A stretch of DNA of 64,000 nt from an archaeon (lineage in GTDB: Archaea > Nanobdellota > Nanobdellia > SCGC-AAA011-G17 > GW2011-AR17): NCBI GenBank assembly GCA_018653605.1, contig JABHYY010000041.1, positions 2,874-66,873 of the forward strand. Direction: 5' to 3'. Shown here in pieces: positions 17,297-53,447 of this stretch. The position numbers were made by a program, and so were the translations under genes. Each line of letters begins with the position of its first letter. Within the stretch, counting starts at the first letter, position 1. The notes beneath the pieces were generated by a model, which was not told the DNA's origin, ran no database searches, and saw nothing but the letters and a program-made list of their open reading frames with translations.

Positions 17297-18508
17297 ATGG
17301 TAAAAAAAGGAGTTGATAGTTTTTTTGATGATTTTCTGAAAAAGGAACCTTTGTTTAAAGATAAGTCTGTATTGCAAGCTAATTATAGTCCAGATAATAT
17401 TCCTCATAGGGAAGAACATATTGAAAAGGTTGCTGGAATATTAGCTCCTGCTCTTAGAGTTGAAAAGCCATCTAATATGTTTATTTATGGGAAAACAGGT
17501 TCTGGCAAGACTTTAGTTGTTAAGCATGTAACTGAAAGTATGGAAAAGATTGCTGAAAAAAATGGTCTTGCTATAAAAATATTTTATTTGAATTGTAAAA
17601 TGAAAAGAGTTGCTGATACTGAATATAGGTTGATTGCTGAAATGGCTAGAGCTTTAGGTGTTGAAATACCTGCAACTGGTTTGCCTACAGATGAAGTTTA
17701 TAGAATTTTTGTTGATAATTTAGAGAAGAGAAAGATTTTGTTAGTTTTAATATTAGATGAGATTGATCAGTTGGTTTCAAAAGCAGGAGATCAAGTTTTG
17801 TATTCTTTAACTAGGTTTAATTCTGAATTAAAAAATAGTTTGATTTCAATTGTTGGAATAAGTAATGATTTAATGTTTACAAATTATTTAGATCCGAGAG
17901 TTAAAAGTTCTTTATCTGAAGAAGAGTTGGTTTTTCCTCCTTATAATGCAATTCAATTGCAAGCAATATTGAAAGAAAGAGCTAAAGATGCTTTTAGGGA
18001 AGGAGTTATTGTTGATGGGGTTTTAGAAAAGTGTGCTGCATATGCTGCAAGGGAACATGGTGATGCAAGAAGAGCTTTAGAATTATTAAGGGTTGCTGGT
18101 GAATTAACTGAAAGAAAAAATAGTAAACAAATTAGTATAGATATATTAGATGAAGCTGAAGAGAAGGTTGAAAGAGATAGAGTTCATGATATTATTTTAA
18201 GTCAACCTAAACAATCACAAATTACTTTGTTAGCAATATTTGAAGCTGTAAAACAAATTGGTAACAAACCTTTATTTACAGGGGATGTATATGAGTTGTA
18301 TAAAGAATTATGTTTTAAAGTAAAGATTAAACCTCTTACACAAAGGCGTATTTCGGATCTTGTTGCTGAGCTTGATATGCTTGGAATAATTCATGCAAAA
18401 GTTATTAGTAAAGGAAGATATGGTCGAACAAGACAGTTTGGGTTGGGTGTACCTCCTTCAACAGTTCCGAAACTTGAAAAGTTGTTGAAAGAGGTTTTAA
18501 ATGTCTGA
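17297..18508 (+). CDS. cdc6: Orc1/Cdc6 replication initiator
   Basis: Walker A IYGKTGSGKTLVVKHV, Walker B LVLILDEIDQL, AAA+ lid and C-terminal winged-helix. 403 aa. A TATA-like ttaaatag lies about 25 bp upstream of the ATG, suggesting a leaderless transcript. Confidence 0.9.
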   Translation: MVKKGVDSFFDDFLKKEPLFKDKSVLQANYSPDNIPHREEHIEKVAGILAPALRVEKPSNMFIYGKTGSGKTLVVKHVTESMEKIAEKNGLAIKIFYLNCKMKRVADTEYRLIAEMARALGVEIPATGLPTDEVYRIFVDNLEKRKILLVLILDEIDQLVSKAGDQVLYSLTRFNSELKNSLISIVGISNDLMFTNYLDPRVKSSLSEEELVFPPYNAIQLQAILKERAKDAFREGVIVDGVLEKCAAYAAREHGDARRALELLRVAGELTERKNSKQISIDILDEAEEKVERDRVHDIILSQPKQSQITLLAIFEAVKQIGNKPLFTGDVYELYKELCFKVKIKPLTQRRISDLVAELDMLGIIHAKVISKGRYGRTRQFGLGVPPSTVPKLEKLLKEVLNV

Positions 18509-20083: not shown

Positions 20084-23000
20084 ATGAATTCTAAAAATAA
20101 AATAATAGTCGTAGCTATGTTAATTGTGTGTATGTCAATCTTAATGGTAAATTCTGTTGCCGCATTAAATTGTTGGGATAAAGATGGAACAACTATGGAT
20201 GAGTGTACAGATTATGATGTAAATGTTAATGGAGAAGCAGATGATTGTTGGTGGGATAGTTGGGGATCCTATTGTATGGAAAAAGGTTGTTGGGATCAAT
20301 CATCTCAAGAATCTTGTAATGCTGAAAACGATACTGGGTGTATTTGGAAATCAGAATCAGATATGGGATGGAATACTGGATGGTGTACTGATTTAGCTGA
20401 TTGTTGGAACCAATGGGATTATGATGGATGTACTGGTGTGAGTGGATGTGCTTGGAAAAATGCTTCTTGTCAAGGGCCTCCTGGTTGTGATGATGTTTTA
20501 AGTGAAACAAGTTGTTATGGTTCTTCTTTAGGATGTTGGTGGGATTATGGCTCTTATTGTTATTCTCCTGGATGTTGGGATTATGGAGGAAGTTCAGATT
20601 GTGGAAATGCTACTGGATGTAATTGGGTATCAGATGCTTATTGTACTGAATTAGGTGGAGGATCTTATTTTTTTAATAACCAAACATCTTGTGAAATAGC
20701 TGGATTTATTTGGGAAAGTTGGGGTAGTGGAGATGATGGATATTGTTATCAACCTAATTGTTATGATTATAGTGATACTTTAACTTGTAATAATGCATCA
20801 AGTGGAGATTGTGCTTGGAGTGTTTATGATTATTGTTATGAAAAGTCTTGTTGGAATTATTGGAATCAAACAGCTTGTACAGATAATGGTGATAGTGTAG
20901 TAGGTGGTTGTGATTGGACTAATTCTGGTTATTGTTCAGAACCAAGTTGTCCAAGTTTTGATGGGAATGCAACTGGTTGTAATGCAAGTGTAGGGTGTAT
21001 TTGGGATGCTGATAATAGTCAATGTCAATATGAAGGGTGTTGGAATTATTATGATACAGGATCTTGTGCAAATGTTACTGGTTGTCAATGGAAAGAAACT
21101 TCTTGTATGGGAAGTTCTGGTTGTGAAAATTTAGAGACATATGATGCTTGTTATGATTCTTCTTTATCTTGTTGGTGGGATTATGGAGATTATTGTGAAG
21201 AAACAGATTGTTGGGATTTTGATGATAATCAAAGTTATTGTGAAACAGATAGTTTGACATATAATTTAGATTGTACTTGGGATTCTTATTGGGGAGAATG
21301 TTGGGAAAATTGGTGTGGTGAGTATTCAACTGAAAACTCATGTAATGATAGTGTTTCTGGTGATTGTTATTGGGATGCAAATGCAAATTATTGTTATGAA
21401 GAAAATTGTTGGGGTTATTCTGATGAAACAAATTGTGAAAATAGAGGATGTGCTTGGGATGGAGATTATGGGTATTGTGAACAAGCATCTGCTGCAAGTT
21501 GTTATGATTTAACTCAAAGCGAATGTACTAATGGAACTTATAGTACAAGTTGTAAGTGGGATTATGGTTGGGGTGGAACTGATGGATGGTGTTCTGATAG
21601 AGGGTGTTGGGATCTTTATGATTCAACAAGTTGTTCAAATGCTAGTCTTGATGTAAGTTGTGAATGGGTAACTGATTCCGGTGGTTGGTGTGAAGAAGAA
21701 GGTACAAATTGTTGGGATTATTATACAGAAGAAAATTGTGGTGCAAATAATTGTACTTGGGATGCTGCTTATAATAGTTGTTATGAAAAAGGTTGTTGGG
21801 ACCATTGGACAAATTCAAGTTGTGCAGCTGATTCAAGTTGTCAATGGTCAACTGGTTCTGCTGACTGGGGATGGTGTGAAAAAGTTTCATGTTGGTCATG
21901 GGATAATACAAATGAATCTGGTTGTGAAAACAATAGCTATAGTTTAAGTTGTGAATGGGACAATAGTAGTAGTGGATGGTGTATGGGTCCATGGCAAAAT
22001 AACTGTTGGGAATTAGATGCTTGGCAAGGTGGAAATGCTTCTGCTTGTAATGCTTTAAACACAACTGGAGAAAATTGTACTTGGCAAGCAATGAGTGGAT
22101 GGTGTTATGAATCAAGCAAAACTTTTAGCGATTTTACATCAGAAGGTGAATGTTTGAGTAGTGGTTGGGGTAGTTGGAATGGAAGTGATTGTGTTGTTTC
22201 AGAACAAACTGATTTTCAAAACCCTGGTTGTTGGATATTTGATGGTAAACCAACTGAGTGTAATGGTATACAAGGATGTACTTATAATACAACAAGTACT
22301 GAATGTAGTGGCTTAGACATATTAGGAATACAGTGTGAAAATATTAGTAGTGTAATTGCAAATAATGTAACTAATACTACATTGTGTGAAGTTTTACCTA
22401 TGTTGTCAACTTGTTGTAAGTATCAAGGTGGACAGTGTGCAACAAGTTATGATACAGCTTGTTGGGATCAAATGGCTGATCCTCCAGAAGGTGCAACATT
22501 TTGTTCTGATTTTAATGTAATAGATAGTAGGCCTTTGTGTGATCAGATTTCAGGTGAACCTTGGTATATGCCTTGTACATGGAATAATGTAAGTACTGAA
22601 TGTGGATTTAAAGGTGATCTTACAGATGATTTAGATAATATTAAAACTAAGAAAGAGTGTGCGTTTGTAGGTGGAACTTGGAAAACTGAAAGTGTTTGTG
22701 ATGATGCATCTAATTGTCCTTATGCTGAAACTTGGTGTGAAATAGAAACAGGTTCATCTTTGTATGGATGTGATATGTCTTGTTGGGCTTGTAATACATC
22801 TACTTCTTGTCGTTCATCTACTAAAGGTTATTGTATGTGGGTGCAAGATACAAGTTTAACTCAAGGAGGATACTGTGATATTCCAGAAACTATAGAAACT
22901 TTTGGAGATTGTGATACATCTTGTCCTTCATGTGAATACTATAGTGGTGGTACTTTTACACCAGAAGAAGCTTGTTTAGCAAGTAAGAATCAATGTAAGT

Positions 23001-26000
23001 GGGATAATTCAACTGAAAGTTGTATTGAGAAAAAAAGTAAAGGTTGTGGAGATGATTGTTTCTATTGTTATAATCTAGATGATTGTAATATGAATGGTGG
23101 TGGAGCTCAAGGAACTTGTAAGTGGGATAATAGTGATGGAATGTGTACTCCTGCTAATTTTGATAGTGAGATTTGTTTTGATGGAAGTGACAACGACAAT
23201 GATGAATTAGTTGATTGTGAAGATCCAGAATGTACTTTTGATCCTTTCTGTGGAGGAGGAGAAATGGGAGAATGTTGGTTATACCAAGATAGTACTAGTT
23301 GTGGAATTCAAAGTGATTGTGAGTGGATACAAGATCCTTGGACAAGTGATTATAGATGTGGTATGAAAGGTGAATCTTGTTGGATGTATCAAACAAATGT
23401 TACTGGTTGTGGTTCAGATGTAAATTGTAAGTGGTATGAAAATACTTTTTGTGAAATAAATCACTCTTTATCTGAAACTTGTTTTCAAAAAACAACTGAG
23501 AGTGGTTGTGAGGCAGTAAGTTCTTGTAAGTGGCAAGCTGATCCATACAGTCCGCAAGATGGATGGTGTGACTTTGCAATGTTTGAATGTCATTGGAACT
23601 CTACATTAGGTGGAAGCAGAACTAATTGTGAATCTAATTCATTGTGTAGTTGGGTAACTGATCCTTGGTCCGGTAGTGGATGGTGTGATCCTAAATGCTT
23701 TGCAAAAGATAGTGATGGCGATGAGTTGTATACAACACAAAGTTCTTGTGAAGGTGCAGTAACAGGTGGACTTTGTGAATGGTCTTCTGGATGGTGTGAA
23801 CCAAATGTTACTTCTACTGGTTCTGTAGATGGAAGAGATTGTCCTTCATACGATGGTAACATGACTTCTTGTGAAGAGCAGCCTGGTTGTGCTTGGTTTG
23901 AACAACACATGTCTGGAAGTGATCATGTTGATAGTGAAGAAGGTGGTTTCTTTGGATCACAATGTGATGTTAAACATGAGTTAGCTGTAGATTGTTGGAT
24001 GTTGAGAAATCAAACAGAATGTAATTTTACCAATAGAACAAATGGATATAATAATACAGGTGATCAAGATGCATGTAGGTGGATTACTGAAGGTAGTTGG
24101 TCTTGGTGTGAACAAATAGGTTGGCATTGTGGTCCCACTTATTCACCATTTAATATGACTACTTATCAACCAGAAACTGATACAGCTGCATGTGCTGCAG
24201 ATCCTTATTGTATGGTTGATACAGATGAATATATGGGTAATCAAGAAGTTTGTGTCTCAAATTGTTTTAATGTTAGTTTGGGTCAGTCTGATTGTGAAAG
24301 TGTAAATACGCAATTAGGAAGTCAGATGTGTGTGTGGTATGGTTTTGGTGGAGGTGGTGGAGAATCTACTGGTGGATGGTGTGATCCAAAAGGTTCAGAA
24401 GCAATATTTGAAAGTATGGAAAGTGGTGTACCTTACATGTTAGGAAGTGATGTATGTGGTGCTGGTTCCGATGATGCTGCATTGAATGATTGGATAGATC
24501 TTTGTGGTGCTGGTATAAAAGAAACCAATGATGACTATATGATGGGTATGGGTTTGTCGTCTATGACTTATGCCGGAGTTTGTAATGGTGAATCACTTTG
24601 GGATGGAAGTACTGGAAGTGGAAGAAAAGCTACTAAAGGTTATTGGTATTTAGATACTGATGGAACTACAGACAATAATTGTTATTCAGATGATGGTGCA
24701 GAGAATGGATTTGAGTTTAAGTTGGTTGCTGAATGGACTTGGTCTGATGAAGGCTTAAAAGAAATGTTAAGTGCAAAGAGATGTTCTAATAGTAGTTGGG
24801 TTGCAGCAAATATTAGATTGGATACACATGCTAAAAAAATGTGTCAAGAAATGCAAGGAATGATTGTTACTGTTAAGAAAGCTGACTTGAATAATTTCCC
24901 TAGTTTGTTTGATATAAGTCATCCAATGAGAATATATTCTGTATCTGCAGGTGAAAATAATACTGCAACTGCTCCAGCCGATAGTGTGGGTCCAAATTAT
25001 TATAAATCTGGAACTGTAGATTTTAAGTTAGAACATTGTGATTCTATTGGTAAAGTTGACAAGGATGGCGATGGTTTTTATTCCTATGAAGATCCAGATT
25101 GTAAGCACATGTATATGGATGAAGAATTTGGTATGAAAGGAACTGAAGATTGTACAAACTTGATTGATGACGATAGAGATGGTGCAATAGATTGTACTGA
25201 TATACAATGTAAAGATGAAGTTGTTTGTGGTTCAGCATTTGCAGTTAATGCAACTGATAAAGAAGCACCTGAAGTAATTGAAATTGATGCAGATGAAAAT
25301 TCTAATACTGCACAAATTGTTGTTAAGACAGAAGAGAGAGCGAATGTTACTTTGAAGTTCTACAATAACGACAGTACTGGTTCAAGAATTAATTCAACAA
25401 TTAGAGCTGAAGGAATGCAGAAAGGAAACTTTACTGATGAAAGAGAAAGGTTTGTGTTTAATAGTGTAATTAGTCTAAATAACTTTACAACTAATACAGA
25501 TATGTTGAATTATACATTAGATAATGCAACCACCTATTATTATAGGGTTGAAGTTTGTGATGTGTCTGGTAATTGTGGAGAGTCTGGATTAAGAAACTTT
25601 ACAACAAAAGCTGTAACAGAAAGATCTACTATTAAAGTTACTGATAGTGATTCAGGACAGACTTGGCAAATAGATAATGGAAGTGGAACATATGCTAATC
25701 CAGGTAGTGCTTGTTCTTCATCAAGTACTTCAACATTAGGTGAGCCTATTGATCCGGATCAAATTAGTGAAGTTGATTTGAGAATGCAGTTGACTAATGC
25801 AGATAGTTTAGCAATGGAAGTAAGACTTGAAGGTGTTGAAACTGGTTCAGATGTTATTGCTCCTTTAGATTTAGATATTGGAACTTTAACTGGTTCAGAG
25901 TCTGATGTAACTGAAGATTACTTTGCAATTGATGAAAGTGATTGGGGAGGTAATGATGGTATCTATAGTGTGGGTCATCCTGACACATTAGTGTTGAGTT

Positions 26001-26476
26001 ATCCTGGTGATGATACTGAGTTGTGGGATTGTGCAGCTTTATCTGGAAGCACTCCAATAAATTGTACTAACATTACTGGTTATGCAATAAGAAGTTATAG
26101 TTCAGGTACTGACATTACTGAATGGACAATTTCAAATCCACCAATACATATTTGGTCTTACATTATAGATCAAACACCTGTTGCAGCTGCGGCTGAAGAA
26201 AGTTCTAGTTCTTCTGGTGGTGGCGGTAGTGGTGGCGCTGGTTCAACTACAAGTGATGAAGAAGAGGAAGAAGAAAGCACAGATCCTGTAAGTGAAGTTA
26301 TTGATGGTGTTGTAGAAGATGTTGGAGATGTTGCTGGTGAAGCAGGACAAAGGGTAGCTGAGTTTGCAGAAGATGTAGGTGAAAGTTTTACTGACTTTGG
26401 TTGGTTATGGTTTGCACTTGCTTCAGTGATTGCAGTTGGAGTTGTGTTGTTTATAGTCTTTAGAAAAAAGGCTTAA
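20084..26476 (+). CDS. Giant (2130 aa) secreted Cys/Trp-rich repeat surface protein with TSP3-like Ca-binding motifs, FN3-like module and C-terminal acidic stretch + TM anchor
   Basis: N-terminal signal peptide MNSKNKIIVVAMLIVCMSILMVNSVAA. Dozens of C..W...GCW(D/N) repeats. DGSDNDNDELVDCEDPECTFDPFC and DDDRDGAIDCTDIQCKDEVVC motifs. FN3-like segment ...YYYRVEVCDVSGNCGESGLRNFTT. The C-terminus is a poly-Glu stretch, then QRVAEF, then a TM helix (GWLWFALASVIAVGVVLFIVF), then RKKA. Confidence 0.8.
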   Translation: MNSKNKIIVVAMLIVCMSILMVNSVAALNCWDKDGTTMDECTDYDVNVNGEADDCWWDSWGSYCMEKGCWDQSSQESCNAENDTGCIWKSESDMGWNTGWCTDLADCWNQWDYDGCTGVSGCAWKNASCQGPPGCDDVLSETSCYGSSLGCWWDYGSYCYSPGCWDYGGSSDCGNATGCNWVSDAYCTELGGGSYFFNNQTSCEIAGFIWESWGSGDDGYCYQPNCYDYSDTLTCNNASSGDCAWSVYDYCYEKSCWNYWNQTACTDNGDSVVGGCDWTNSGYCSEPSCPSFDGNATGCNASVGCIWDADNSQCQYEGCWNYYDTGSCANVTGCQWKETSCMGSSGCENLETYDACYDSSLSCWWDYGDYCEETDCWDFDDNQSYCETDSLTYNLDCTWDSYWGECWENWCGEYSTENSCNDSVSGDCYWDANANYCYEENCWGYSDETNCENRGCAWDGDYGYCEQASAASCYDLTQSECTNGTYSTSCKWDYGWGGTDGWCSDRGCWDLYDSTSCSNASLDVSCEWVTDSGGWCEEEGTNCWDYYTEENCGANNCTWDAAYNSCYEKGCWDHWTNSSCAADSSCQWSTGSADWGWCEKVSCWSWDNTNESGCENNSYSLSCEWDNSSSGWCMGPWQNNCWELDAWQGGNASACNALNTTGENCTWQAMSGWCYESSKTFSDFTSEGECLSSGWGSWNGSDCVVSEQTDFQNPGCWIFDGKPTECNGIQGCTYNTTSTECSGLDILGIQCENISSVIANNVTNTTLCEVLPMLSTCCKYQGGQCATSYDTACWDQMADPPEGATFCSDFNVIDSRPLCDQISGEPWYMPCTWNNVSTECGFKGDLTDDLDNIKTKKECAFVGGTWKTESVCDDASNCPYAETWCEIETGSSLYGCDMSCWACNTSTSCRSSTKGYCMWVQDTSLTQGGYCDIPETIETFGDCDTSCPSCEYYSGGTFTPEEACLASKNQCKWDNSTESCIEKKSKGCGDDCFYCYNLDDCNMNGGGAQGTCKWDNSDGMCTPANFDSEICFDGSDNDNDELVDCEDPECTFDPFCGGGEMGECWLYQDSTSCGIQSDCEWIQDPWTSDYRCGMKGESCWMYQTNVTGCGSDVNCKWYENTFCEINHSLSETCFQKTTESGCEAVSSCKWQADPYSPQDGWCDFAMFECHWNSTLGGSRTNCESNSLCSWVTDPWSGSGWCDPKCFAKDSDGDELYTTQSSCEGAVTGGLCEWSSGWCEPNVTSTGSVDGRDCPSYDGNMTSCEEQPGCAWFEQHMSGSDHVDSEEGGFFGSQCDVKHELAVDCWMLRNQTECNFTNRTNGYNNTGDQDACRWITEGSWSWCEQIGWHCGPTYSPFNMTTYQPETDTAACAADPYCMVDTDEYMGNQEVCVSNCFNVSLGQSDCESVNTQLGSQMCVWYGFGGGGGESTGGWCDPKGSEAIFESMESGVPYMLGSDVCGAGSDDAALNDWIDLCGAGIKETNDDYMMGMGLSSMTYAGVCNGESLWDGSTGSGRKATKGYWYLDTDGTTDNNCYSDDGAENGFEFKLVAEWTWSDEGLKEMLSAKRCSNSSWVAANIRLDTHAKKMCQEMQGMIVTVKKADLNNFPSLFDISHPMRIYSVSAGENNTATAPADSVGPNYYKSGTVDFKLEHCDSIGKVDKDGDGFYSYEDPDCKHMYMDEEFGMKGTEDCTNLIDDDRDGAIDCTDIQCKDEVVCGSAFAVNATDKEAPEVIEIDADENSNTAQIVVKTEERANVTLKFYNNDSTGSRINSTIRAEGMQKGNFTDERERFVFNSVISLNNFTTNTDMLNYTLDNATTYYYRVEVCDVSGNCGESGLRNFTTKAVTERSTIKVTDSDSGQTWQIDNGSGTYANPGSACSSSSTSTLGEPIDPDQISEVDLRMQLTNADSLAMEVRLEGVETGSDVIAPLDLDIGTLTGSESDVTEDYFAIDESDWGGNDGIYSVGHPDTLVLSYPGDDTELWDCAALSGSTPINCTNITGYAIRSYSSGTDITEWTISNPPIHIWSYIIDQTPVAAAAEESSSSSGGGGSGGAGSTTSDEEEEEESTDPVSEVIDGVVEDVGDVAGEAGQRVAEFAEDVGESFTDFGWLWFALASVIAVGVVLFIVFRKKA

Positions 26477-26605
26477 TTTTTTATTTTTTTATTTTTTATA
26501 GAGAACAAAGAGTTTTTATTTTTGTGAAACCAATTGAAACCAAATTCTTTTTATTTTTCAGAAAGTTTAGAAAACTTTATAAATCGCTTTGCTATAATTT
26601 AATGA

Positions 26606-29600
26606 ATGTTAAAAGGGGTGAGGGGTAATCTGCATAGTATTCTTTTAGTTGGTTTAATAGTTATAGTTTTCGCAGGTTTATTTTATGGTGGAATAACTGG
26701 ATTTTATACAAGTCCTTTTGGTGGTGGTCCAATACCTTTTAATAATTTTGATCAGTTTGATACTTCTGCAATTAACTTATCTCTTTATCAGTTGACTTTG
26801 GTTGTTGGTGATCCAGGAGTAAGTTCTACTCTTAATGTTTCTGTTAATAGTAATTTTCTTTTTAATGTAACTCATACTGGAACAACTGTAGGTAGTGGTG
26901 CAACAAAATTATATATTAATACAAATATTCAACAAGCAAATGTTTATACCTATATTAATATGACTGATACTAGTAGTACAGTTAGTGCAAGTGCCGAAGC
27001 TTCTTCTGGAATTGAATTATCAGATGATTCATTTACTCGTGGTGCTTGTTATTTAAATTTAGCAAACACTAGTCAGTTTAGATTGGTTGCTAGTAATATT
27101 ACTGGTCCAGTACCTTATGCAAATGTTGGTGCAGGAGTTGGAAATTTATCTTTACAATATGATGTGCCTACTACAATGATTAATTGTACTTTTAGGTGGG
27201 CAGGGGGAGTACAGTCTATTTTAGTTCCTACAAATTTAAATGTAATAAATATTAAGCCTAAATTATTTGCTGATTTAGATAGACCTGCTGGCGGTCCCGG
27301 TCCAATTAATGGCTCTGGTCAGGTTGAATCTTATTTTGATTTTTGGAATGTTACTGCAGTTTTACCTGCAGCTCCACCTCCACCTCCAGCAACAATGGAA
27401 CAACCTTTCTTTGAAACTTTTACAGGCCCTGGTGTTAATGTAAGTAGATTTACTATGCCTGCACAAATGAATGGATTTAATTTTAGTCAAAGTAATAATA
27501 TGATTGTTATGAATGGTACTACTACAAATACTGAACTTTTTATGAGTTTATCTAATGCAAATGCTATATCTATTTCTACACAACTTACTCTAAGTAGTGT
27601 ATTTAATTTAACTGGAAATATTGGGGTTGCTGGAACAGATTCTGTACTTTACAAATTAGGTTTGGCTGGAACTCCTACTTCTAGCTATTGTGCTATGGAT
27701 CTTAAATTTGATGGGACTTATTACTTTTGTGCTGATGGAAATTGTACTGTGGTTCCTAAGGGTTGGGGAAATTTGACTTTTGATTATCAACCTATCGGTA
27801 CTTTAGTTACTTGTACTTATACTAATAATATGACTGTTGTTGAAAGAACTACTGTTGGTGGTCATACAACTTCTACTATTACAAATACTTTGCATATTTC
27901 TAATGCAAGTGATTCTGGTTATGTTACAATTGATGATCTTAATTATACTGTTGCTGTTGCTCCTCCTGTTGTTGTTTTTGAAAATCCTTTTTTTGAAACT
28001 TTTACTCCTCCTGTTGTTAATGTAAGTAGGTTTACTGTGCCTACTCCTGTTCCTGGTTTTAATTTTAGTCAAAGTGCTGGTATGATAGTAATGAATGGTA
28101 CTGCTGTTGGATTGAATCCAGTTACAATTTTGGATAATGTAAATGCTATCAGCATTGTTTCATCAACTATTTTAAGTAGTGTTTTTAATTTGACAGGTAG
28201 TGTTGCAAATGTTGGAACAGATGCAACTACTTATAGATTTGGTTTATTTAGTGGTTCTCCTAGCTTTTGTAATGTTGCTCTTAAGCAAAGTGGAAGTTAT
28301 CAATTCTGTGCTAATAAGAATTGTACTGGAATTCCTAAGGGGTGGGGTAATTTAACTTTTACTTTTGATCCTGCAGGAGGTTTGGTAACTTGTACTTTTA
28401 CTAACAATGTAACTGTTGTTTCTAGAACAATTACAGGGTCACATACTTCATCTACAATTAGAAATGGGTTAATAATTTCAAATGTTAGTGATTCTGGTTA
28501 TCTTACTATTGATGATTTGAATTATAGTATTGTTGTTGCTGCTCCTCCTGTTTCTGAACAACCTTTTTATGACACCTTTACAGGTGTTTTGAATAATAGT
28601 AGGTGGACTGGAGCTAATCCTCTTGCTCCTGGTTTTAATTTTAGTTTAGGTAATAATATGATTGTAATGAATGGTACTGCTGTAGGGCTTGCTGCTTTTT
28701 CAGCTTTCAGCAGTAAAATAAATATAAATGTTGTGAATCCTATTGAAGTTAGAAGTGATTTTAATTTAACTGGGAATATTGCTAATGTTGGAACTGATAG
28801 TGTTCGTTATTTGTTAGTATTGACTAATGGTGCTGGCCCTTCAACTTTTTGTACAATTAATATTGATAATGTTAGTCAGTTAGTGTGTGCAAATTCAAAC
28901 TGTACTGCTATTACTAGTACAACTGGTACTCTTTCAGCATACTATAATCATGGATCTAATTTAGCAAATTGTTCTTTTATTGATGGTGAAACTGTTGTTG
29001 GTAGAACTATTGCTGCTAATCATGGAACAATTACTATTTCAAATCAATTGTCTATCTCTAATATAAGTGATTCTGGTTATTTGACTGTTGATAATTTGAA
29101 CTATAGTAGCAATGTTCCTAATCCTCCTAGTGCAGCTGCTGCTCCAGATACACTTGGAGAATTTACAGAAGCTTTTACTGGAAAAAATATTGATGGGAAT
29201 TTTTTTAATGCTCCAAGTAATTCAAAAGGTTTAGTGATTACTCAAAATAATACTTTGATTATTACTGGTGCTACTGTGGGTAGTGATGCTTTTGCTTATC
29301 TTAATTCTCAAGATGTAACTGATGCTACTGATGATTATGTTTTTAGTGTTGTTACTAATTTAACTGGAACTGTTACTGGAGGAAAAAAAGTTCGTGCTGA
29401 ACTTTATACACGACCAGATGAAGCTTCTCCTAGGGATGGATGTAGATTACAACTTAGTGATAATGTATATACTATTTGCCATAGAGATAGTGGTAATTGT
29501 AGTGTTGTACCTTCTGGTGTTGGGACAATGATTTATTCTTATGATAAATCTGTAGCTTTGCTTTCTTGTGCTTTTAATAGTACTAATTATACTGTTGTTA

Positions 29601-32600
29601 GTAATCTTTCAATTGCAGTTGAAGATGGTCCTGTTTATCTTGCTGGATATGTTCAAAGTACCGGTGATACTTTAAATTTAACTTTTGATGATTTAAGTTA
29701 TCTTCCAGGTGAACAAGCAAGTCTTTTGACTGAATTTTATGAAACTTTTGATGGTGCTTCTCCAAATTTTGGTTTGTTTGATTCTGGTGATACTGTTGGA
29801 TCTGGAATTAATGCTATTCAAAATAATGCTTTAATTGTTTCAGGAACTGCTTCTTCTACTAATTCAAATTTCCATTTACCTACAACTAATGCTGTTGATG
29901 TTTCAGATTCCTTTATTGTATCAGCTTATGTAAATGTTACTAGTGTTGTGCCTTCTGGTTTGATTGCAGCTGAATTATTTAATGAAGATGTAGCAGAAGA
30001 TAATTATGGTTGTATGCTTCTTAGTACAGATGGAAGTAGTTATTCTGTATGTACTGATGGAGGAGCTTTAAATTGTAGTATTGTTAGTGCGAGTGAAGGA
30101 AATTTGACTTATTACCGTCATAAAACTTCAAATAAAGTTTATTGTTTATTTGATCCTGTTGGTGCTGGAAGTACTGTAGTTGTTTCTGAAACTTTAAATG
30201 TGCAAGTTGGTCCTATTTATATGAGAGGGTATGTACAAAATTCAGGAGCTAGTATTGTTGCAATTTATGATAATTTAAATTATACTACTGGTGAGATGAC
30301 TCTTCCGGGTGGTAGTCCTCCTGAACCTGATGAAGGTTTTGGAATGTGTTCAAGTTTTAATGGTAATCAAGCTTCTTGTTTGAGCTCTTCAGATAATGTT
30401 GTTTGTGCTTGGTTAAATCCTGGTCAAGAATGGTGTTCTCCTACAAGTAGTGGTTGTTGTGACCAAGTTTCTTGTCAAGCTTATAATGGAGATATAACTG
30501 GATGTAATAATGTTGCTAGTGACTTGGGTTGTAGTTGGAATGATAATCAGTATAATCAAAATATGTGGTGTCCAATAAGTTCATCAAATCCTTACATGCC
30601 AAATGGTATGCCTGTTATTGGAACTAATATTGGTTGTTGTACATCAGAGATGTGTAGTGATGCTGCTGGAACTAATCAAACTTATTGTGATGGTAGTGAG
30701 ACTAATTTTATGAATAGTATTTGTAGTTGGGAAACTCAAGCTACAAATCCTTATTGTCCTGATGCAACTGGTTGTTGTGGGTTGCCTGATTGTGGTGATG
30801 TAACAACTCAAACTGATTGTGAATATTTAATGTCAAAAGGACAGTCTTGCGATTGGAGTGGTTCTATTTGTTCAAGTGGTGGATATGATAGTTATGATGG
30901 TGCTGATAGTTGTGTTGATGGAGGAGGAACTTGGAATGGAACTGCTTGTGAAACTCCTGATTATACTGATGAAGCAAGTAATGCAAGGTGTTGGTTTGCT
31001 GATAATCAAGTAAGTGTATGTGGTAATATAACTGGTTGTGTATATTGTGTTGCTGGAAGTGGTTATGCTGGAATTGCAAATGAAACTAGTTTTTGTTTTA
31101 ACAAACAAGCTAATTGGTGTGAAGGACATTCACCTGGTGCTTTTGCAGAGGGTGATCCTGAAGCTATGACTTGTTCTGATATTCAATTAGGTGTGACTTG
31201 TGATTGTGGTCCTGTGCCTGGTTGTCATTGGACAAATAGTAGTGCTACAACTGGAGCTTTTTGTTCTTCAGGTGTGCCTCAATGTGATTTAGATTATGAT
31301 AGTTTAGAATTTCAACAGTGTGAAGATGCAACAACTTCAGGTGATTGTAACAATTTAGCTGCTGATTATTTCTTACCTTGTACTTGGAATACTGGTGAGA
31401 ATGCATGTTTATTTGATTTTATGGCTGGAGGTTCTGGTGATCAAAAAGGAAGTATGGATTTTGAATTTACAGATATTATGGATGAAGAAAATTGTCAGTT
31501 TGCTGGAGGAAGTTGGAATAATGTTGTGATTGATTCTTATGGTAATACTGATAGTTGGTGTGACTTTGGATTTGGTGCTGGAATGGATACTTGTAATAAT
31601 TCTTGTTGGGCATGTGAGATGCAAAGTGATGGAACTGGTTGGGGTAGTTCTACTTTAGCACAAAATGAATGTGAAACTTCAAATGCAGTTGTAAATGGTT
31701 GTGAATTTATTTCTTTTGGTGGAACTCAAGGAATGGGAGATAGGTGGGGATGGTGTGATTATCCTGGTGGTTCTGAGTTCTTTGGTGGAAGTTGTGAGAC
31801 TATGTGTTATGATTGTTTTGGTGATGATATGTGTACAACTAGTGCAGCTGATTGTGGTTGGACAGAGGATCCTTATGGTGGGGGTTGGTGTGATCCTAGT
31901 TCATTAGCTAATTTACAAGATCCTACTTTGAATTGTCTTGCTGCAAAAACTGAAACTCAATGTGGAACTTTAGCAGATGAAACTGTTTGTCAATGGAATA
32001 GTACTTATGTAATAGATCCATTTAATGGTCAAAGTATGTCTGTTTGTATTGAAGATGGTGCAAGTCCTGAGATTTGTTTTATGCCTGGTGATGAAGATGA
32101 AAATGGTTTAGCAGATTGTCAAGATCCAGTTTGTAGTTCAGATCCAATGTGTGGATTTGGAATGGGCTTTGGTGGTGAAATGATGACTGATAGTTTTATG
32201 TTGCCACCTGGTATGGAACAAGATCTTTGTTTTGCTTATGATGATACAAATCAATCTACTTGTGAAGCTTATGTAATAAACCAAACACTTGTATTTAATG
32301 GTAGTACAAGAGGATTTGCTGGATTGCCTGCTCACTTGAATAATCAAGTGCTTTGTTATTATCATACAGCTCCATCTGGTGCTCAAGAAACCGAATGGTG
32401 TGATCCTGTATTCCATGAAATGATGATGGGTGATATGGATAATGCTCCACCTATTATGCTTGGAACTGATGCAACTGGTGATGCTTCATCTATAGATTGT
32501 TTGGACATTACTGAATTAGGTATTAAAAATGAAATGCAAAAAATGGTTATAGGTGTTCCTGTTGTAAATATTACTGACTTTGCTGGATGTGATAAAAAGA

Positions 32601-34447
32601 TTCCTGGAAACTCTACACAGAATGGAACTTTCTATAGATATTTAGATACTGATGATAATGGAGCTACTGGTTGTACTGCGAATGGTGGTAGTGAAGGTGA
32701 TATTGATTTAGATGGATATGATTATAAAATTGTAATGCAAGGTACTTGGAATGGAACTAGTAGTAACAATGTTTTAAGTGCATATGAATGTGCTGATTCA
32801 ACAGCGAATACTTGGGCGCCTAAGAGTGCAGCTTTAACATTTAAAGATGACTTCTGTTTAATGGAAGGTGGTCCTGGTTCTCAAGGGATTAATGCAGTTA
32901 TTTTAACTAAAAATGATTTTGGAATTGGTAGTGATAATTTAAGAATTTATATTACAACTGTGTTTGATGATGAAACAGATCCTATTGATACATTAGGTCC
33001 ATTTTATTTTACTCCTGGATCTATTGATTTTATAGGTGAGGATTGTTTTGGATTTGTTGATAAGGATGGAGATGGTGATCTTCCAAGTGATGATGCTGAT
33101 TGTTCATTTATTAATAATTTAGGATTTATGCCTTTTGAAGATTGTGGAGATGGTATTGATAACAATGCAGATGGTTTAACTGATTGTAATGATTATATGT
33201 GTACTTTTACACCAATGTGTAATGGGAATTTTGGATTTAGTGCAAGTGGAACTGATAATACTGCACCACAAGTAATTTATCATACAGTTGATGCTTTTGA
33301 TATAGGTGCATTTGTTAAGTTTGATACAAATGAACCTGCAAATGGAAGTGTGTTGTTTTATTCAAATGATTCAACTTGTACAACCTTGAATAAGAGTTTA
33401 CATGACACTGGTGACCCTATGTGTATTGGTGCATGGTGTGACTTTGATGATTATAAATTATGGCATGATTTACCAATTGATAATTTTGCTGGAGCACCGC
33501 CTGCTTGGAAATTAGGTTATGATTTGACTAATGGAACAACTTATTTCTATAGGTATAAAGTATGTGATCCTGATAGTAACTGTGCTACAAGTGCTTGTGT
33601 TAACTTTACAACTAAAGGAATTCAGCCTCAATATTATTTTGATATGGAACCACCTACAGGATTTTCTGTAAAAATGCCTTGGGATATTGAAGGAAGTGGT
33701 TTTGCAAAACAAGTTAATTTTAGTGTTGCAAAAAATATTGATATTAATATTACATGTGCTGATGCTGGTTATGAAATTAGATTAGTTGGTGCTGACATTA
33801 AAGGTGCACAAGATCTTGATGTAAGTAGTATTGTTTGTAGTGGATCAACTGGTTTGATTGGTATGACTTCAACTGTTTGGAATCAGTTATTGTTTGGATT
33901 GAGTGTTGATTATGTTGAAATTACTTGGGCTGTTGAAGAAGGTGCGACAACTGCACAACACTGTGATAATGATGGTTTGAATTGTGTTGATGTAAATGAT
34001 TATTTAGATTGTGTTACTACTGATACTTCCTGGACATGTAAAATTCCTTTAACTTTAGGATTCTCTACTTACAAAGTTGTAACTCCTACAGGTGAGGTTG
34101 CGTCTGCTACTGTTTCTGCTGGAAGTGGTGGAGCTACTGCAGAAGGTCTTTCTAATGATGAAGAGGAAGAAGAGGAAGAGGCTGATAATATTGTTGAAGA
34201 AGTTGTTGATGATGTAGCTGAAGCTGTTGATGAAGGTGTACAAAGAGTTAGTGAGTTTGTTGGAGATATTGTTGGTGAGGAAGTTGTTCAGAATACTTGG
34301 GTTTGGGTTGTTGTAGGTGGGTTGCTTGGATTAGGTGTTATAACTTTTGTTGTTTTGAAAAAAACAGGTTGTTGTAAACCTAAGAAAAAAGCTAAGAAGA
34401 AAGTTAGTAAGAAAGTGTCTAAGAAGAGAAAGGTTAAAAAACATTAA
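26606..34447 (+). CDS. Giant (2613 aa) surface protein: N-terminal signal-anchor, five tandem ~190-aa sequon-rich modules, Cys-rich region, TSP3-like motifs, FN3-like module, C-terminal acidic stretch + TM + polybasic tail
   Basis: Repeated modules each start FFETFTGPGVNVSRFT / FFETFTPPVVNVSRFT / FYDTFTGVLNNSRWT... and end GY(V/L)T(I/V)DDLNY. There are many NxS/T sequons. The Cys-rich region is paralogous to the previous gene (DCQDPVCSSDPMC, DCNDYMCTFTPMC). The C-terminus is a poly-Glu stretch (DEEEEEEEADN), then QRVSEF, then a TM helix (WVWVVVGGLLGLGVITFVV), then a KK-rich tail. Confidence 0.8.
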   Translation: MLKGVRGNLHSILLVGLIVIVFAGLFYGGITGFYTSPFGGGPIPFNNFDQFDTSAINLSLYQLTLVVGDPGVSSTLNVSVNSNFLFNVTHTGTTVGSGATKLYINTNIQQANVYTYINMTDTSSTVSASAEASSGIELSDDSFTRGACYLNLANTSQFRLVASNITGPVPYANVGAGVGNLSLQYDVPTTMINCTFRWAGGVQSILVPTNLNVINIKPKLFADLDRPAGGPGPINGSGQVESYFDFWNVTAVLPAAPPPPPATMEQPFFETFTGPGVNVSRFTMPAQMNGFNFSQSNNMIVMNGTTTNTELFMSLSNANAISISTQLTLSSVFNLTGNIGVAGTDSVLYKLGLAGTPTSSYCAMDLKFDGTYYFCADGNCTVVPKGWGNLTFDYQPIGTLVTCTYTNNMTVVERTTVGGHTTSTITNTLHISNASDSGYVTIDDLNYTVAVAPPVVVFENPFFETFTPPVVNVSRFTVPTPVPGFNFSQSAGMIVMNGTAVGLNPVTILDNVNAISIVSSTILSSVFNLTGSVANVGTDATTYRFGLFSGSPSFCNVALKQSGSYQFCANKNCTGIPKGWGNLTFTFDPAGGLVTCTFTNNVTVVSRTITGSHTSSTIRNGLIISNVSDSGYLTIDDLNYSIVVAAPPVSEQPFYDTFTGVLNNSRWTGANPLAPGFNFSLGNNMIVMNGTAVGLAAFSAFSSKININVVNPIEVRSDFNLTGNIANVGTDSVRYLLVLTNGAGPSTFCTINIDNVSQLVCANSNCTAITSTTGTLSAYYNHGSNLANCSFIDGETVVGRTIAANHGTITISNQLSISNISDSGYLTVDNLNYSSNVPNPPSAAAAPDTLGEFTEAFTGKNIDGNFFNAPSNSKGLVITQNNTLIITGATVGSDAFAYLNSQDVTDATDDYVFSVVTNLTGTVTGGKKVRAELYTRPDEASPRDGCRLQLSDNVYTICHRDSGNCSVVPSGVGTMIYSYDKSVALLSCAFNSTNYTVVSNLSIAVEDGPVYLAGYVQSTGDTLNLTFDDLSYLPGEQASLLTEFYETFDGASPNFGLFDSGDTVGSGINAIQNNALIVSGTASSTNSNFHLPTTNAVDVSDSFIVSAYVNVTSVVPSGLIAAELFNEDVAEDNYGCMLLSTDGSSYSVCTDGGALNCSIVSASEGNLTYYRHKTSNKVYCLFDPVGAGSTVVVSETLNVQVGPIYMRGYVQNSGASIVAIYDNLNYTTGEMTLPGGSPPEPDEGFGMCSSFNGNQASCLSSSDNVVCAWLNPGQEWCSPTSSGCCDQVSCQAYNGDITGCNNVASDLGCSWNDNQYNQNMWCPISSSNPYMPNGMPVIGTNIGCCTSEMCSDAAGTNQTYCDGSETNFMNSICSWETQATNPYCPDATGCCGLPDCGDVTTQTDCEYLMSKGQSCDWSGSICSSGGYDSYDGADSCVDGGGTWNGTACETPDYTDEASNARCWFADNQVSVCGNITGCVYCVAGSGYAGIANETSFCFNKQANWCEGHSPGAFAEGDPEAMTCSDIQLGVTCDCGPVPGCHWTNSSATTGAFCSSGVPQCDLDYDSLEFQQCEDATTSGDCNNLAADYFLPCTWNTGENACLFDFMAGGSGDQKGSMDFEFTDIMDEENCQFAGGSWNNVVIDSYGNTDSWCDFGFGAGMDTCNNSCWACEMQSDGTGWGSSTLAQNECETSNAVVNGCEFISFGGTQGMGDRWGWCDYPGGSEFFGGSCETMCYDCFGDDMCTTSAADCGWTEDPYGGGWCDPSSLANLQDPTLNCLAAKTETQCGTLADETVCQWNSTYVIDPFNGQSMSVCIEDGASPEICFMPGDEDENGLADCQDPVCSSDPMCGFGMGFGGEMMTDSFMLPPGMEQDLCFAYDDTNQSTCEAYVINQTLVFNGSTRGFAGLPAHLNNQVLCYYHTAPSGAQETEWCDPVFHEMMMGDMDNAPPIMLGTDATGDASSIDCLDITELGIKNEMQKMVIGVPVVNITDFAGCDKKIPGNSTQNGTFYRYLDTDDNGATGCTANGGSEGDIDLDGYDYKIVMQGTWNGTSSNNVLSAYECADSTANTWAPKSAALTFKDDFCLMEGGPGSQGINAVILTKNDFGIGSDNLRIYITTVFDDETDPIDTLGPFYFTPGSIDFIGEDCFGFVDKDGDGDLPSDDADCSFINNLGFMPFEDCGDGIDNNADGLTDCNDYMCTFTPMCNGNFGFSASGTDNTAPQVIYHTVDAFDIGAFVKFDTNEPANGSVLFYSNDSTCTTLNKSLHDTGDPMCIGAWCDFDDYKLWHDLPIDNFAGAPPAWKLGYDLTNGTTYFYRYKVCDPDSNCATSACVNFTTKGIQPQYYFDMEPPTGFSVKMPWDIEGSGFAKQVNFSVAKNIDINITCADAGYEIRLVGADIKGAQDLDVSSIVCSGSTGLIGMTSTVWNQLLFGLSVDYVEITWAVEEGATTAQHCDNDGLNCVDVNDYLDCVTTDTSWTCKIPLTLGFSTYKVVTPTGEVASATVSAGSGGATAEGLSNDEEEEEEEADNIVEEVVDDVAEAVDEGVQRVSEFVGDIVGEEVVQNTWVWVVVGGLLGLGVITFVVLKKTGCCKPKKKAKKKVSKKVSKKRKVKKH

Positions 34448-34463
34448 ATTCTTTATTATTTGT

Positions 34464-36293
34464 ATGAGGTGGTACTTAATTATTTGTTTTATAGTAATAT
34501 TAATGTTTAGTGTTAGTGCTCTTCCTGCACAGCCTTTTACTTTTGTTTGTGATGGTGAAATTTGTGATGAGGAAGATAGTGGGGATTATGAAATTCTTTT
34601 TAATACTGGTGGAAGAGGTGACTCCTATGCTGAAACAGAAGATGGTTATCCTGTAATGCTTGATAAGAAAAAGATTTATTTTGCTGAGCAGGGTTCTGAT
34701 GGGAAGTTAAGACCTACAAGGCATAAGATGGGAACTGCTGATCCTGAAAAGTTGAAGTTAATTAAAATTGCTGAGATGGATAGAAAAAGATTGATGGAGA
34801 TACCACCTGAGTTCCGTCCTGAAAGACCTTTGGATGATAGGCAAGAAGCTTTGAGGAAAAAGATTTTGCGTGAGAGAAGGTTGATGGAAGAGAACAGTGT
34901 TACTGGTGGGGTGGTTGCTGAGGAAGGAAGTTCTTTGAAAGTGTTAGTTGTGTTTATGGAATTTTCTGATCAAAAACATTCTGTTGATTTTGATTCTTTT
35001 GATAGTTATTTAGAAGGGTTGTCTGATTATTATTATTCTGAATCTAATGGAGATTTATTGTTAGATTTTTATCCTGTAAAGAATTGGTATTTGGCGCAAA
35101 ATGAGATGGGTTATTATGGTGGTGATTATGAAAGTAAAGCGGATGATCTGGTTGATGAGGCTGTTAATATGATTGATTTGTCTGGTGGTTATGATGATGA
35201 TGGAGATGGTGTTTTAGATGGGCCTTTATTAGTTATACATGCTGGTGCTGCTGATGAAACTGTTGGAGGTAATACTGATTTGATTTGGAGTTTTTATTCT
35301 TCTACTGGAGGTTTGGAATCAAATGGTGTTGAAGTGTTGGATTATGTTCTTTTGAGTGAAGAGTTTGTTCTTGGTACTGCTGCACATGAGTTTGGACATT
35401 TTTTGGGTTTGCCTGATTTGTATGATACTGATCCTGATGATGGTGAGTCAAAAGGTTGTGGTTTTTTTTGTTTGATGGGTTATGGTTGTTATCTTAGTGA
35501 GATTTCTGGGTTGAGTCCTTGGAGTCAATATTATTTAAGTTGGGATGGTGGGTTGCTTGAGGTTGATGGTTCTGGTACTTTTGAAATTGGTTATAGTGGT
35601 TCTTTGAAAGTTCCTATTGATGTTAATGAATATTTTTTAGTTGAGAATAGAGAAGAAAGTTCTTTTTTTGGTGAAAAAGTTGGTGGAGTTTTTATTTGGC
35701 ACATTGATGAGGCTGTTATGGAAGAACAAGGTAGTTGGATGGGTTGTAAAGGTTCTAGATTGGATTGTAATGTTGTTAATGCAAATGAAGTTCATAAGTT
35801 AGTTGATTTTGAAGAGGCTGATAATTTTGGATTGGATGAGGATAGTGATGTGAGTGATTATGGTGGTGAGGATGATGTGTGGGGTAGTAGTGCTGTATTT
35901 TATTCTGGTTCAGCTCCAAGTACTTTTACTTATGCTGGCGTTGAAAGTGGAGTTTCAATTGAGGTTTTGAGTTCTATTGGAGAGTTGATGGAGGTAGGTG
36001 TTAGTTTTGGTGGTGAGGAGAGTGTTGCTGAAGGAGTAAGTGGTGTTTCAAGTCCTGAGGTTAGTGGTGAAGATTATTCTGATGATCGTGATGTTATGCA
36101 GTTTGCTGGTTCTATTGATGGTGAAGATGTAGATGATGTTCCTTTTGAAGAAGAAGAGGAAGTTAGTGGAGATAGGGATGGTACTACAACTTCTGAAGAA
36201 GGTGGTTCTAATTTGTTAATATGGATAATTATTGGGGTTATTATTTTAATTGTTATTTCTATTATTAGTATTTTGTTTTTGTCTAAAAGCTGA
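34464..36293 (+). CDS. Secreted, membrane-anchored zinc metallopeptidase (HEFGHFLGLPD motif; M6/M7-like)
   Basis: Signal peptide MRWYLIICFIVILMFSVSALPA. AAHEFGHFLGLPDLYD is a HExxHxxGxxD zinc motif as in snapalysin/InhA-type peptidases. C-terminal poly-Glu then a TM helix (LLIWIIIGVIILIVISIISILFL). Confidence 0.7.
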   Translation: MRWYLIICFIVILMFSVSALPAQPFTFVCDGEICDEEDSGDYEILFNTGGRGDSYAETEDGYPVMLDKKKIYFAEQGSDGKLRPTRHKMGTADPEKLKLIKIAEMDRKRLMEIPPEFRPERPLDDRQEALRKKILRERRLMEENSVTGGVVAEEGSSLKVLVVFMEFSDQKHSVDFDSFDSYLEGLSDYYYSESNGDLLLDFYPVKNWYLAQNEMGYYGGDYESKADDLVDEAVNMIDLSGGYDDDGDGVLDGPLLVIHAGAADETVGGNTDLIWSFYSSTGGLESNGVEVLDYVLLSEEFVLGTAAHEFGHFLGLPDLYDTDPDDGESKGCGFFCLMGYGCYLSEISGLSPWSQYYLSWDGGLLEVDGSGTFEIGYSGSLKVPIDVNEYFLVENREESSFFGEKVGGVFIWHIDEAVMEEQGSWMGCKGSRLDCNVVNANEVHKLVDFEEADNFGLDEDSDVSDYGGEDDVWGSSAVFYSGSAPSTFTYAGVESGVSIEVLSSIGELMEVGVSFGGEESVAEGVSGVSSPEVSGEDYSDDRDVMQFAGSIDGEDVDDVPFEEEEEVSGDRDGTTTSEEGGSNLLIWIIIGVIILIVISIISILFLSKS

Positions 36294-52548: not shown

Positions 52549-52549
52549 A

Positions 52550-53446: not shown

Positions 53447-53447
53447 A

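Follow-up and report, generated by a model that had tools for sequence, protein, structure and literature searches.

We have studied a stretch of archaeal DNA of 64,000 nucleotides (contig JABHYY010000041.1 of assembly GCA_018653605.1), which we will call the window. Three of its genes, p1, p2 and p3, lie in the same direction between the genes for the two PolD subunits. The first two code for giant surface proteins, the third one for a zinc metalloprotease. An earlier note on this region, made from the sequence alone, had proposed that the three proteins share a C-terminal module, a possible novel anchoring or sorting signal. We find this module in p1 and p2 and not in p3. It is probable that p1 and p2 are type-I anchored giant glycoproteins which share a stalk-anchor cassette by paralogy, that this cassette has also moved to an unrelated small protein, and that the M6 protease is anchored separately. 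The positions of all features are given in Table 1.

Direct translation agrees with the layout described in the earlier note. In p1 and p2 a Gly/Ser linker is followed by six or seven Glu and by an acidic stretch rich in V, D and E, which contains QRV(A/S)EF. Then comes WLW or WVW, which opens a hydrophobic transmembrane (TM) helix of about 20 residues, and finally a basic tail. The C-terminus of p1 reads SSSSSGGGGSGGAGSTTS-DEEEEEE-...QRVAEF...FG-WLWFALASVIAVGVVLFIVF-RKKA, and that of p2 reads ...SAGSGG...-DEEEEEEE-...QRVSEF...-WVWVVVGGLLGLGVITFVVL-KKTGCCKPKKKAKKKVSKKVSKKRKVKKH. The tail of p2, with 29 residues, is Lys-rich and contains CC, as had been noted. The triplet W-x-W is invariant in all eight module sequences (8/8). 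A hidden Markov model (HMM) of these eight sequences, compared with all six-frame open reading frames (ORFs) of the window, finds only p1 (E=2.5e-30) and p2 (E=2.7e-26).

The residues which precede the TM helix have a clear amphipathic periodicity. Over 36 residues p1 has a helical hydrophobic moment of 1.82, which is reached by none of 5000 shuffled sequences; the moment of p2 is reached by 38 of 5000 and that of P0069, a protein discussed below, by 27 of 5000. The TM helices of p1 and p2 have faces of small residues (Gly/Ala), for example GGLLGLG in p2. The only tandem repeat found, 24 nt long with 1.9 copies, lies inside the acidic helix of p2. An AlphaFold2 model of residues 1692-2130 of p1 has low confidence, with an overall predicted local distance difference test score (pLDDT) of 55.8. 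In this model the Gly/Ser and poly-Glu region is disordered, a short helix covers EAGQRVAEFAEDV (residues 2086-2098) and the TM helix extends from 2103 to 2129.

The third protein is a different case. As had been described, p3 is a metalloprotease with a poly-Glu and TM end: its C-terminus, FEEEEEV...LLIWIIIGVIILIVISIISILFL-SKS, has five Glu, a linker, a long hydrophobic helix and the tail SKS. We have considered p3 as a carrier of the module and ruled it out. Its reading frame is absent from the HMM matches even at E<=100 with filters off. It has no amphipathic helix before the TM, since its hydrophobic moment is reached by 3596 of 5000 shuffles. Nor is its tail basic; orthologues of p3 end with SKR or WNRDFSD, the latter in the related locus L010. 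All three tests being negative, p3 shares with p1 and p2 only the generic architecture of an acidic linker plus a TM helix, and the proposed sharing by three proteins holds for two of them.

The ectodomains of p1 and p2 had been considered unrelated. This is not the case: the two proteins are 33% identical across their last ~700 aligned residues, the alignment continues into the module, and their Cys-rich regions are also linked by BLAST. They are paralogues, so the module is common to both by descent. A recent gene conversion between the two modules was considered and rejected, as the modules are 41% identical compared with 33% in the flanking region.

The description of giant Cys/Trp-rich proteins with DxDxDG motifs next to a protease is supported. 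There are 174 Cys, 102 Trp and 54 N-x-S/T sequons in p1, and 113 Cys and 69 sequons in p2; both sequon counts are about twice the expectation calculated from composition. DxDxDG is present twice in each protein. A hydropathy scan gives for p1, p2 and p3 exactly two hydrophobic segments, one at each terminus. Thus p1 and p2 have the features of type-I proteins: an N-terminal export signal and a single C-terminal hydrophobic helix of about 20 residues, followed by positive charges.

An acidic four-Cys repeat, CxDGxDNDxDxxxDCxDxxC, is found at 23168-23251 in p1 and at 33137-33220 in p2. It resembles the acidic double-disulfide repeat NF033662 (~32 aa), for which p1 scores 39.3 bits and p2 22.7 bits with a cut-off of 41, and it has a weak match in the PDB with a Teneurin-4 chain (7plp, E=0.007). 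It may be a shared calcium-binding disulfide knot. Neither p1 nor p2 has a Pfam match to TSP_3. A Pfam scan of both proteins, whole and in halves, gave no families, and fn3 had no match in p1. The AlphaFold2 model of p1 does contain an all-beta domain at residues ~1730-1840 with pLDDT 70-88, which may be FN3-like. A second model covers the conserved core common to p1, p2 and all their homologues (p1 residues ~1450-1645). It is a beta-sandwich with pLDDT 70.2, and 80-94 in its core. Comparison with PDB folds gave no significant match; the best ones are glucodextranase (E=1.5e-3, TM-score 0.29) and then CBM74. PDB sequence searches gave only noise from Gly/Ser linkers (single-chain antibody linkers) besides the weak Teneurin-4 match.

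The N-terminal part of p2 has its own peculiarities. Its first ~1200 residues (26606-30300) are built from repeated units of ~200 aa, rich in N-glycan sites, with the pattern FxETFTG...NGT...LNY; these units have no Pfam match. The protein is identical to the database entry P0066. Its orthologue P0068 (69% identity) has 1828 aa compared with 2613 aa in p2, because it has fewer copies of the repeat. The N-terminus of p2, MLKGVRGNLHSILLVGLIVIVFAGLFYGGI (26606-26695), is conserved in P0068 and has K-G/R-G ahead of a long hydrophobic stretch. There is no obvious AxA site for signal peptidase, so this segment may stay as a second anchor. It could act as a signal anchor that is not cleaved, or as a class III-like signal; p2 would then be held in the membrane by both ends.

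Table 1. Features of the surface-protein island and its borders; nucleotide positions are those of the window, residues (aa) those of each protein.
Feature	Position	Strand	Remarks
PolD small subunit (DP1)	18501-19964	+	left border of the island; Pfam on the 93%-identical orthologue in L011
p1	20084-26476	+	2130 aa, giant Cys/Trp-rich surface protein; ORF and translation
p1 signal peptide	aa 1-27		
p1 Cys-rich repeats	aa ~28-1400		
p1 conserved beta-sandwich core	aa ~1450-1645		
p1 FN3-like beta domain	aa ~1730-1840		
p1 anchor module	26201-26473	+	
p1 Gly/Ser linker	26201-26254		
p1 poly-Glu	26255-26278		
p1 acidic amphipathic helix	26288-26401		QRVAEF at 26348-26365 (aa 2089-2094)
p1 TM helix	26402-26461		capped by W-L-W
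p1 tail	26462-26473		RKKA
p2	26606-34447	+	2613 aa, giant surface protein; ORF and translation
p2 N-terminal hydrophobic segment			signal or anchor
p2 repeated units of ~200 aa	aa ~260-1230		N-glycan-rich
p2 Cys-rich region	aa ~1240-1850		
p2 C-terminal ~700 aa			paralogous to p1
p2 anchor module	34115-34444	+	
p2 Gly/Ser-type linker	34115-34156		
p2 poly-Glu	34157-34183		
p2 acidic amphipathic helix	34190-34297		QRVSEF at 34241-34258 (aa 2546-2551)
p2 TM helix	34298-34357		capped by W-V-W
p2 tail	34358-34444		Lys-rich, 29 residues, with CC
p3	34464-36293	+	609 aa, membrane-anchored M6 (immune inhibitor A-like) zinc metalloprotease
p3 signal peptide	34464-34520		
p3 zinc site HEFGH	35385-35399		
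p3 Glu run	36144-36164		
p3 TM helix	36213-36281		followed by the tail SKS
PolD large subunit (DP2)	36348-40310	+	right border of the island; Pfam PolC_DP2 on the identical gene in L001-L004

The family of p1 is large. We have found 65 homologues of ~1800-3000 aa, with identities from 62% to ~25%, in Woese-, Pace-, Aenigm- and Nanoarchaeota. A C-terminal TM helix is present in 61 of them; the remaining four appear truncated. With few exceptions their C-terminus consists of a low-complexity linker, which is acidic or rich in Pro/Thr or Gly/Ser, then a TM helix and a basic tail. The module itself is specific to the nearest relatives of p1 and p2. In the p1 orthologues P0001 and P0006 (62-63% identity) QRVxEF is replaced by VEKAGEF or VERAAEF, and in P0067 by QRAAEF, while GWLWF is kept in these three proteins. 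Orthologues with 48-58% identity (P0002, P0004, P0005 and P0007) have wholly different C-termini, with other linker-TM-tail ends. In P0027, P0041, P0044 and P0054 a conserved cytoplasmic domain of ~45 residues is found past the TM helix, with the motif ..K.L...GW....V[DE]......K. The presence of this domain indicates that the TM helix is a permanent anchor in the p1 family. Comparison of p2 with P0068 shows, by our own count, 87% identity for helix and TM compared with 69% for the whole protein, with QRVSEF and TWVW kept. The tail of P0068 is different and shorter, 14 residues without CC, so the CC/poly-Lys feature of p2 is not conserved.

The module is very rare. An exhaustive search with its profile in 1.84 billion representative proteins gave nine matches, with E from 1e-13 to 1e-21: p2 itself, its orthologue, p1-type orthologues, and P0069, P0071, P0072 and P0073. 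A scan of 185,579 GTDB species genomes with a back-translated pattern found one locus, L010. The same scan of JGI metagenome contigs gave no matches, nor did a search with the module alone (76 aa) in a word index of 5.8e9 proteins. It had been considered that the motif might be confined to the two paralogues through simple duplication. Within the window it is; outside it, P0069 and P0074 also carry the module.

P0069 is a small protein of ~336 aa with its own signal peptide, after correction of the start codon; P0074 is 86% identical to it. Its ectodomain has a weak CARDB-like signal, and its BLAST similarity to p1 and p2 is confined to the module. It ends with GGGGG-FTSDEEEEEEE-...IIESAIEFIEDIQESFKEYGWLWAILGAIVVIGIVVYFTTRKK, and both proteins follow the pattern GS-polyE-...IESAIEF..ESFKEYGWLW-TM-RKK. 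The pattern ExAxEF...ESFxE[FY]GWLW...G.V.YF.T[KR]KK thus recurs on a protein which is not homologous to the giants. The family of P0069 has 110 members of ~430 aa, with ectodomains 55-60% identical, in which an additional beta domain usually precedes the final linker, TM helix and tail. The p1-like module is confined to P0069 and P0074. When the module of P0069 is compared with those of the giants, the same codon is used at 54-59% of the identical residues, compared with a background of 67% in orthologues. As this rate is not above the background, the sharing is old and has been maintained at the protein level.

A different situation is found in L014, where P0099, of the P0069 family, lies immediately upstream of the p1 orthologue P0003. 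Both proteins have LTWLWILII at the start of the TM helix, coded by 27 identical nucleotides (L014 ~1580-1610 and ~8010-8040). By codon bias alone such an identity would have a probability of roughly 5e-4, by our own rough estimate, which suggests 3'-end exchange or gene conversion between neighbours. On this sequence evidence the module is an anchor cassette which can move between proteins of a narrow clade, with its sequence under some selection. We also note the gene order in two of these loci. In L008 (4564-10954) an N-glycan-rich protein of 1793 aa without a TM helix is followed by the small TM-anchored P0069. The same SlaA/SlaB-like pair is found in L014 (2-8094), with P0099 as the small member and the giant p1 orthologue directly after it.

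The protease p3 is well identified. It matches PF05547 with E=1.3e-13 and 51.4 bits (cut-off 22) and TIGR03296 with 111.3 bits (cut-off 110.8), and its zinc site HEFGH (HEXXH) is found at residue 308. A gap of 16 nt separates p2 from p3, both here and in L011, so the two genes are probably co-transcribed. The region between p1 and p2 has an oligo-T run and a TTTATAAA box ahead of p2, which suggest two transcription units, p1 alone and p2-p3. A scan for sigma-70 promoters and terminators was no better than with shuffled sequences; this model is uninformative for an archaeon.

The host of these genes is a small marine DPANN archaeon, Woesearchaeota-like. The housekeeping genes around the island are archaeal (Cdc6, LonB, SerRS, MutS/MutL, topoisomerase), the G+C content is ~30-36%, and the p3 gene is found identical on marine metagenome contigs and in GCA_018651505.1. 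Among species representatives the nearest genome is a metagenome-assembled one of Candidatus Woesearchaeota. The PolD-flanked island of surface proteins is hypervariable; its content in the window is p1, p2 and the M6 protease. In the Tara loci L011-L013, whose housekeeping proteins are 91-97% identical, it contains only a shorter p2 orthologue and an M6 protease (78% identity). In L010 and L015 (PolD/DP2 81-84% identity) there are only a p1 orthologue (62%) and an M6 protease (45%). The surface genes of the island diverge far faster than their neighbours. In L010, L011-L013 and L015 the M6 gene is always directly 3' of the giant gene, either of p1 or of p2 type. A related arrangement is seen in L007 (7215-9911), where a TM-anchored subtilisin-like (S8) protease instead of M6 precedes the giant p1 homologue P0005; P0005 is followed by further TM-anchored surface proteins, each of which combines an acidic linker with a TM helix and a basic tail.

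Close relatives also differ in their inteins. DP2 has 1320 aa in the window, with a weak Intein_splicing match, and 1152 aa without it in L011 (16766-20224). Cdc6 has 403 aa in the window (17297-18508), compared with 769 aa in L011 (5482-7791), where it contains intein and LAGLIDADG domains. There is a polymorphism of intein presence at both DP2 and Cdc6. Elsewhere in the window, at 51700-54200, there are three tandem paralogous genes (282, 298 and 250 aa) with C-terminal halves which look protein-kinase-like, as judged by eye from the translations.

The results on sorting signals are mostly negative. The last 380, 380 and 200 residues of p1, p2 and p3 were scanned with NCBIfam at E<=10, and no PGF-CTERM, PEF-CTERM, LPXTG or other CTERM model was matched. 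The earlier note had rightly stated that the module is neither PGF-CTERM nor PEF-CTERM. The TM helix is preceded by FG-WLW in p1 and NT-WVW in p2 rather than by PGF or PEF, and apart from the aromatic W-x-W cap no signature motif abuts it. PGF_pre_PGF (TIGR04213) is not matched either in p1, p2 or p3 at E<=10. This domain is found in the homologues P0007 (E=2e-24) and P0019 (E=1e-21), inserted between the Gly/Ser linker and the linker-TM-tail end. Its presence explains why many homologues are named 'PGF-pre-PGF domain-containing protein' at NCBI; those which carry it likewise have no PGF-CTERM match. The 64-kb window contains no multi-TM protein fit to be an archaeosortase, exosortase or rhombosortase. 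The basic cluster after the TM helix, present in p1 (RKKA) and in the Lys-rich tail of p2 and failing in p3 (SKS), is generic to type-I proteins. In the literature we found no description of this giant-protein family or of a WLW-type signal. Archaeosortases have been reported from a subset of Euryarchaeota, and in Sulfolobales surface proteins are anchored by a C-terminal TM helix without archaeosortase (PMC6098224). In Nanobdella, a cultivated DPANN archaeon, glycosylated surface proteins and peptidases are anchored by a C-terminal TM helix, and its thermopsin-like membrane-anchored peptidases have been proposed to act on host or partner surfaces (bioRxiv 10.1101/2023.10.27.564410).

We can now consider how p1 and p2 might work as giant type-I proteins with a common stalk and anchor. 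Both would be exported through Sec, heavily N-glycosylated, rich in disulfides and kept in the cytoplasmic membrane. Their TM helix would be retained: the swapping of C-termini among orthologues and the cytoplasmic domain past the TM point to a retained anchor and not to a cleaved signal. The Gly/Ser linker and poly-Glu would be a flexible, negatively charged spacer. It would be followed by a strongly acidic amphipathic helix of ~30 residues, with QRV(A/S)EF as one of its turns, running into a TM helix with two interfacial Trp as its cap and with small-residue (Gly/Ala) faces. Helix and TM may form a stalk which oligomerises or packs against like anchors, or which spaces the ectodomains from the membrane. 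An oligomerising or packing stalk would explain why different ectodomains share a conserved sequence beyond hydrophobicity. The basic tail would act as stop-transfer on the cytoplasmic side and fix the topology. Within a narrow clade, 3'-end exchange would also have brought the cassette to at least one small surface protein unrelated to them. The M6 protease, whose gene is probably co-transcribed with that of p2, would be an ecto-protease with an anchor of its own, made of a generic acidic linker and TM helix. It may trim p1 and p2 or attack the envelope of a partner, as suggested for the Nanobdella peptidases. Finally, p1 and p2 might serve for cell-cell or host attachment.

Some observations weigh against this explanation. 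The AlphaFold2 model of the module region is low in confidence. Over short distances helix and TM match or exceed the ectodomain in conservation (87% compared with 69% for p2 and P0068), and they are 52-57% identical between unrelated proteins, P0069 and the p1-type orthologues. These identities indicate that the sequence of helix and TM is itself under selection, which a purely generic anchor does not need. We have considered whether the cassette ExAxEF...ESFxE[FY]G-W[LV]W is a clade-specific recognition element, common to the giants of p1 and p2 type and to the small CARDB-like protein, either for co-assembly into a single envelope complex through the anchors or for a dedicated factor, such as the M6 protease or an undiscovered sortase-like enzyme. 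We give this only a small chance; if true, it would be a new code for sorting or assembly of archaeal surface proteins in DPANN. At the opposite end, the module could be a matter of composition only, a low-complexity acidic linker plus any hydrophobic helix, with QRVxEF and WxW as leftovers of the p1/p2 duplication. Nearly all surface proteins of related loci have an acidic linker followed by a TM helix, QRVxEF is not conserved in p1 orthologues, and p3 demonstrates that composition alone can mimic the module. Nevertheless this explanation is unlikely. It does not account for the strength of the profile matches (1e-13 to 1e-21 against 1.84e9 proteins), for the recurrence of the long pattern on a non-homologous protein, for the significant amphipathic periodicity, or for modules more conserved than the rest of the protein in p2 and P0068.

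Two other explanations give the module an enzymatic partner. It could be a true C-terminal sorting signal (W-L/V-W or EF...ESF...GWLW, TM, basic tail), cleaved and re-attached by an enzyme like sortase, archaeosortase or rhombosortase. The tripartite layout, the invariant W-x-W, the conservation beyond mere hydrophobicity and the presence on unrelated ectodomains in relatives (P0069/P0074, and P0099 next to P0003) would fit with it. Yet no known sorting model matches, the window has no candidate enzyme and its only carriers are two paralogues, and the module is extremely rare globally. Orthologues freely exchange it for different anchors, a long conserved cytoplasmic domain being attached to some of them; the tail has 29 residues in p2 and 14 in its orthologue; and archaeosortases have been reported from some Euryarchaeota (PMC6098224). 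Such a signal is most improbable. We found no support for a sorting or processing signal: of the functions proposed in the earlier note, anchoring in the membrane stands, and a sortase-like system lacks support, given the absence of a motif other than the W-x-W cap and of an enzyme in the window, the variability of QRVxEF and the swapped C-termini. In the other explanation the M6 protease docks at, or cleaves, the acidic juxtamembrane segment and so sheds or matures the giant ectodomains; the module would then be shared as a common substrate site. In every close relative examined the M6 gene lies directly downstream of the giant gene, here after 16 nt, another relative has an S8 protease beside its giant gene, and both partners would sit at the same membrane. 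However, synteny is the sole basis of this idea. In L014 a module-bearing giant is found on a 14.8-kb contig which lacks an M6 gene, no protease gene adjoins P0069 in L008, and host or partner surfaces could just as well be the target of the protease, as has been suggested for the thermopsin-like peptidases of Nanobdella. We consider it very unlikely. The stalk and anchor shared by paralogy remain our preferred reading.

As it stands, the cassette is plausibly an ordinary type-I anchor, and the main outcome of our analysis is a correction to the proposal of a new sortase-type signal. The locus has an interest of its own. DPANN archaea are thought to depend on contact with host cells, and their envelope proteins are almost entirely uncharacterised. 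Here we find a family of giant, fast-evolving, Cys-rich glycoproteins without Pfam or PDB relatives. In a hypervariable PolD island it is regularly accompanied by a membrane-anchored protease, and its stalk-anchor is exchangeable. Should the cassette serve in co-assembly or processing, it would provide a handle on how DPANN cells build their contact surface.

Several known systems can be compared with these proteins. SlaB of Sulfolobales, tetrabrachion of Staphylothermus and the proteins of Nanobdella aerobiophila are similar to p1 and p2 in having a Sec signal, an N-glycosylated beta-rich ectodomain, a helical stalk, a single C-terminal TM helix with a short basic tail, and a protease associated or encoded nearby. 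SlaB has a coiled coil, and tetrabrachion is associated with the STABLE protease. Relatives of our locus have a gene pair similar to SlaA/SlaB, in which a large protein without a TM helix precedes a small one with a TM anchor. There is no detectable homology in sequence or fold between these systems and p1 and p2, which differ from them by their short (~30 aa), extremely acidic helix after Gly/Ser and poly-Glu, and by their giant Cys/Trp-rich arrays. The substrates of archaeosortase A (PGF-CTERM) and of sortase-type systems are alike in the C-terminal position of the signal, in the TM helix followed by basic residues and in the low-complexity linker before it; some p1 homologues in other DPANN even carry PGF_pre_PGF (TIGR04213). 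They differ from p1 and p2, which have no PGF/PEF motif, HMM match or PGF_pre_PGF and no enzyme in the window. The module also differs from such signals by its few carriers, its variable and sometimes long tails and a motif which is not conserved across orthologues. The M6 family, with immune inhibitor A of Bacillus and PrtV of Vibrio, shares with p3 a catalytic domain above curated cut-offs and the HEXXH site; p3 differs by being archaeal, by its C-terminal TM anchor and by its operon-like pairing with a giant surface protein between PolD genes. Finally, there are the uncharacterised giant proteins of DPANN, either hypothetical or named 'PGF-pre-PGF domain-containing'. In this group p1 is a full-length member and p2 shares its C-terminal ~700 aa. 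In most of these giants PGF_pre_PGF or a different beta domain is inserted between Gly/Ser linker and TM helix; in p1, p2 and their nearest orthologues its place is taken by the poly-Glu and amphipathic-helix module.

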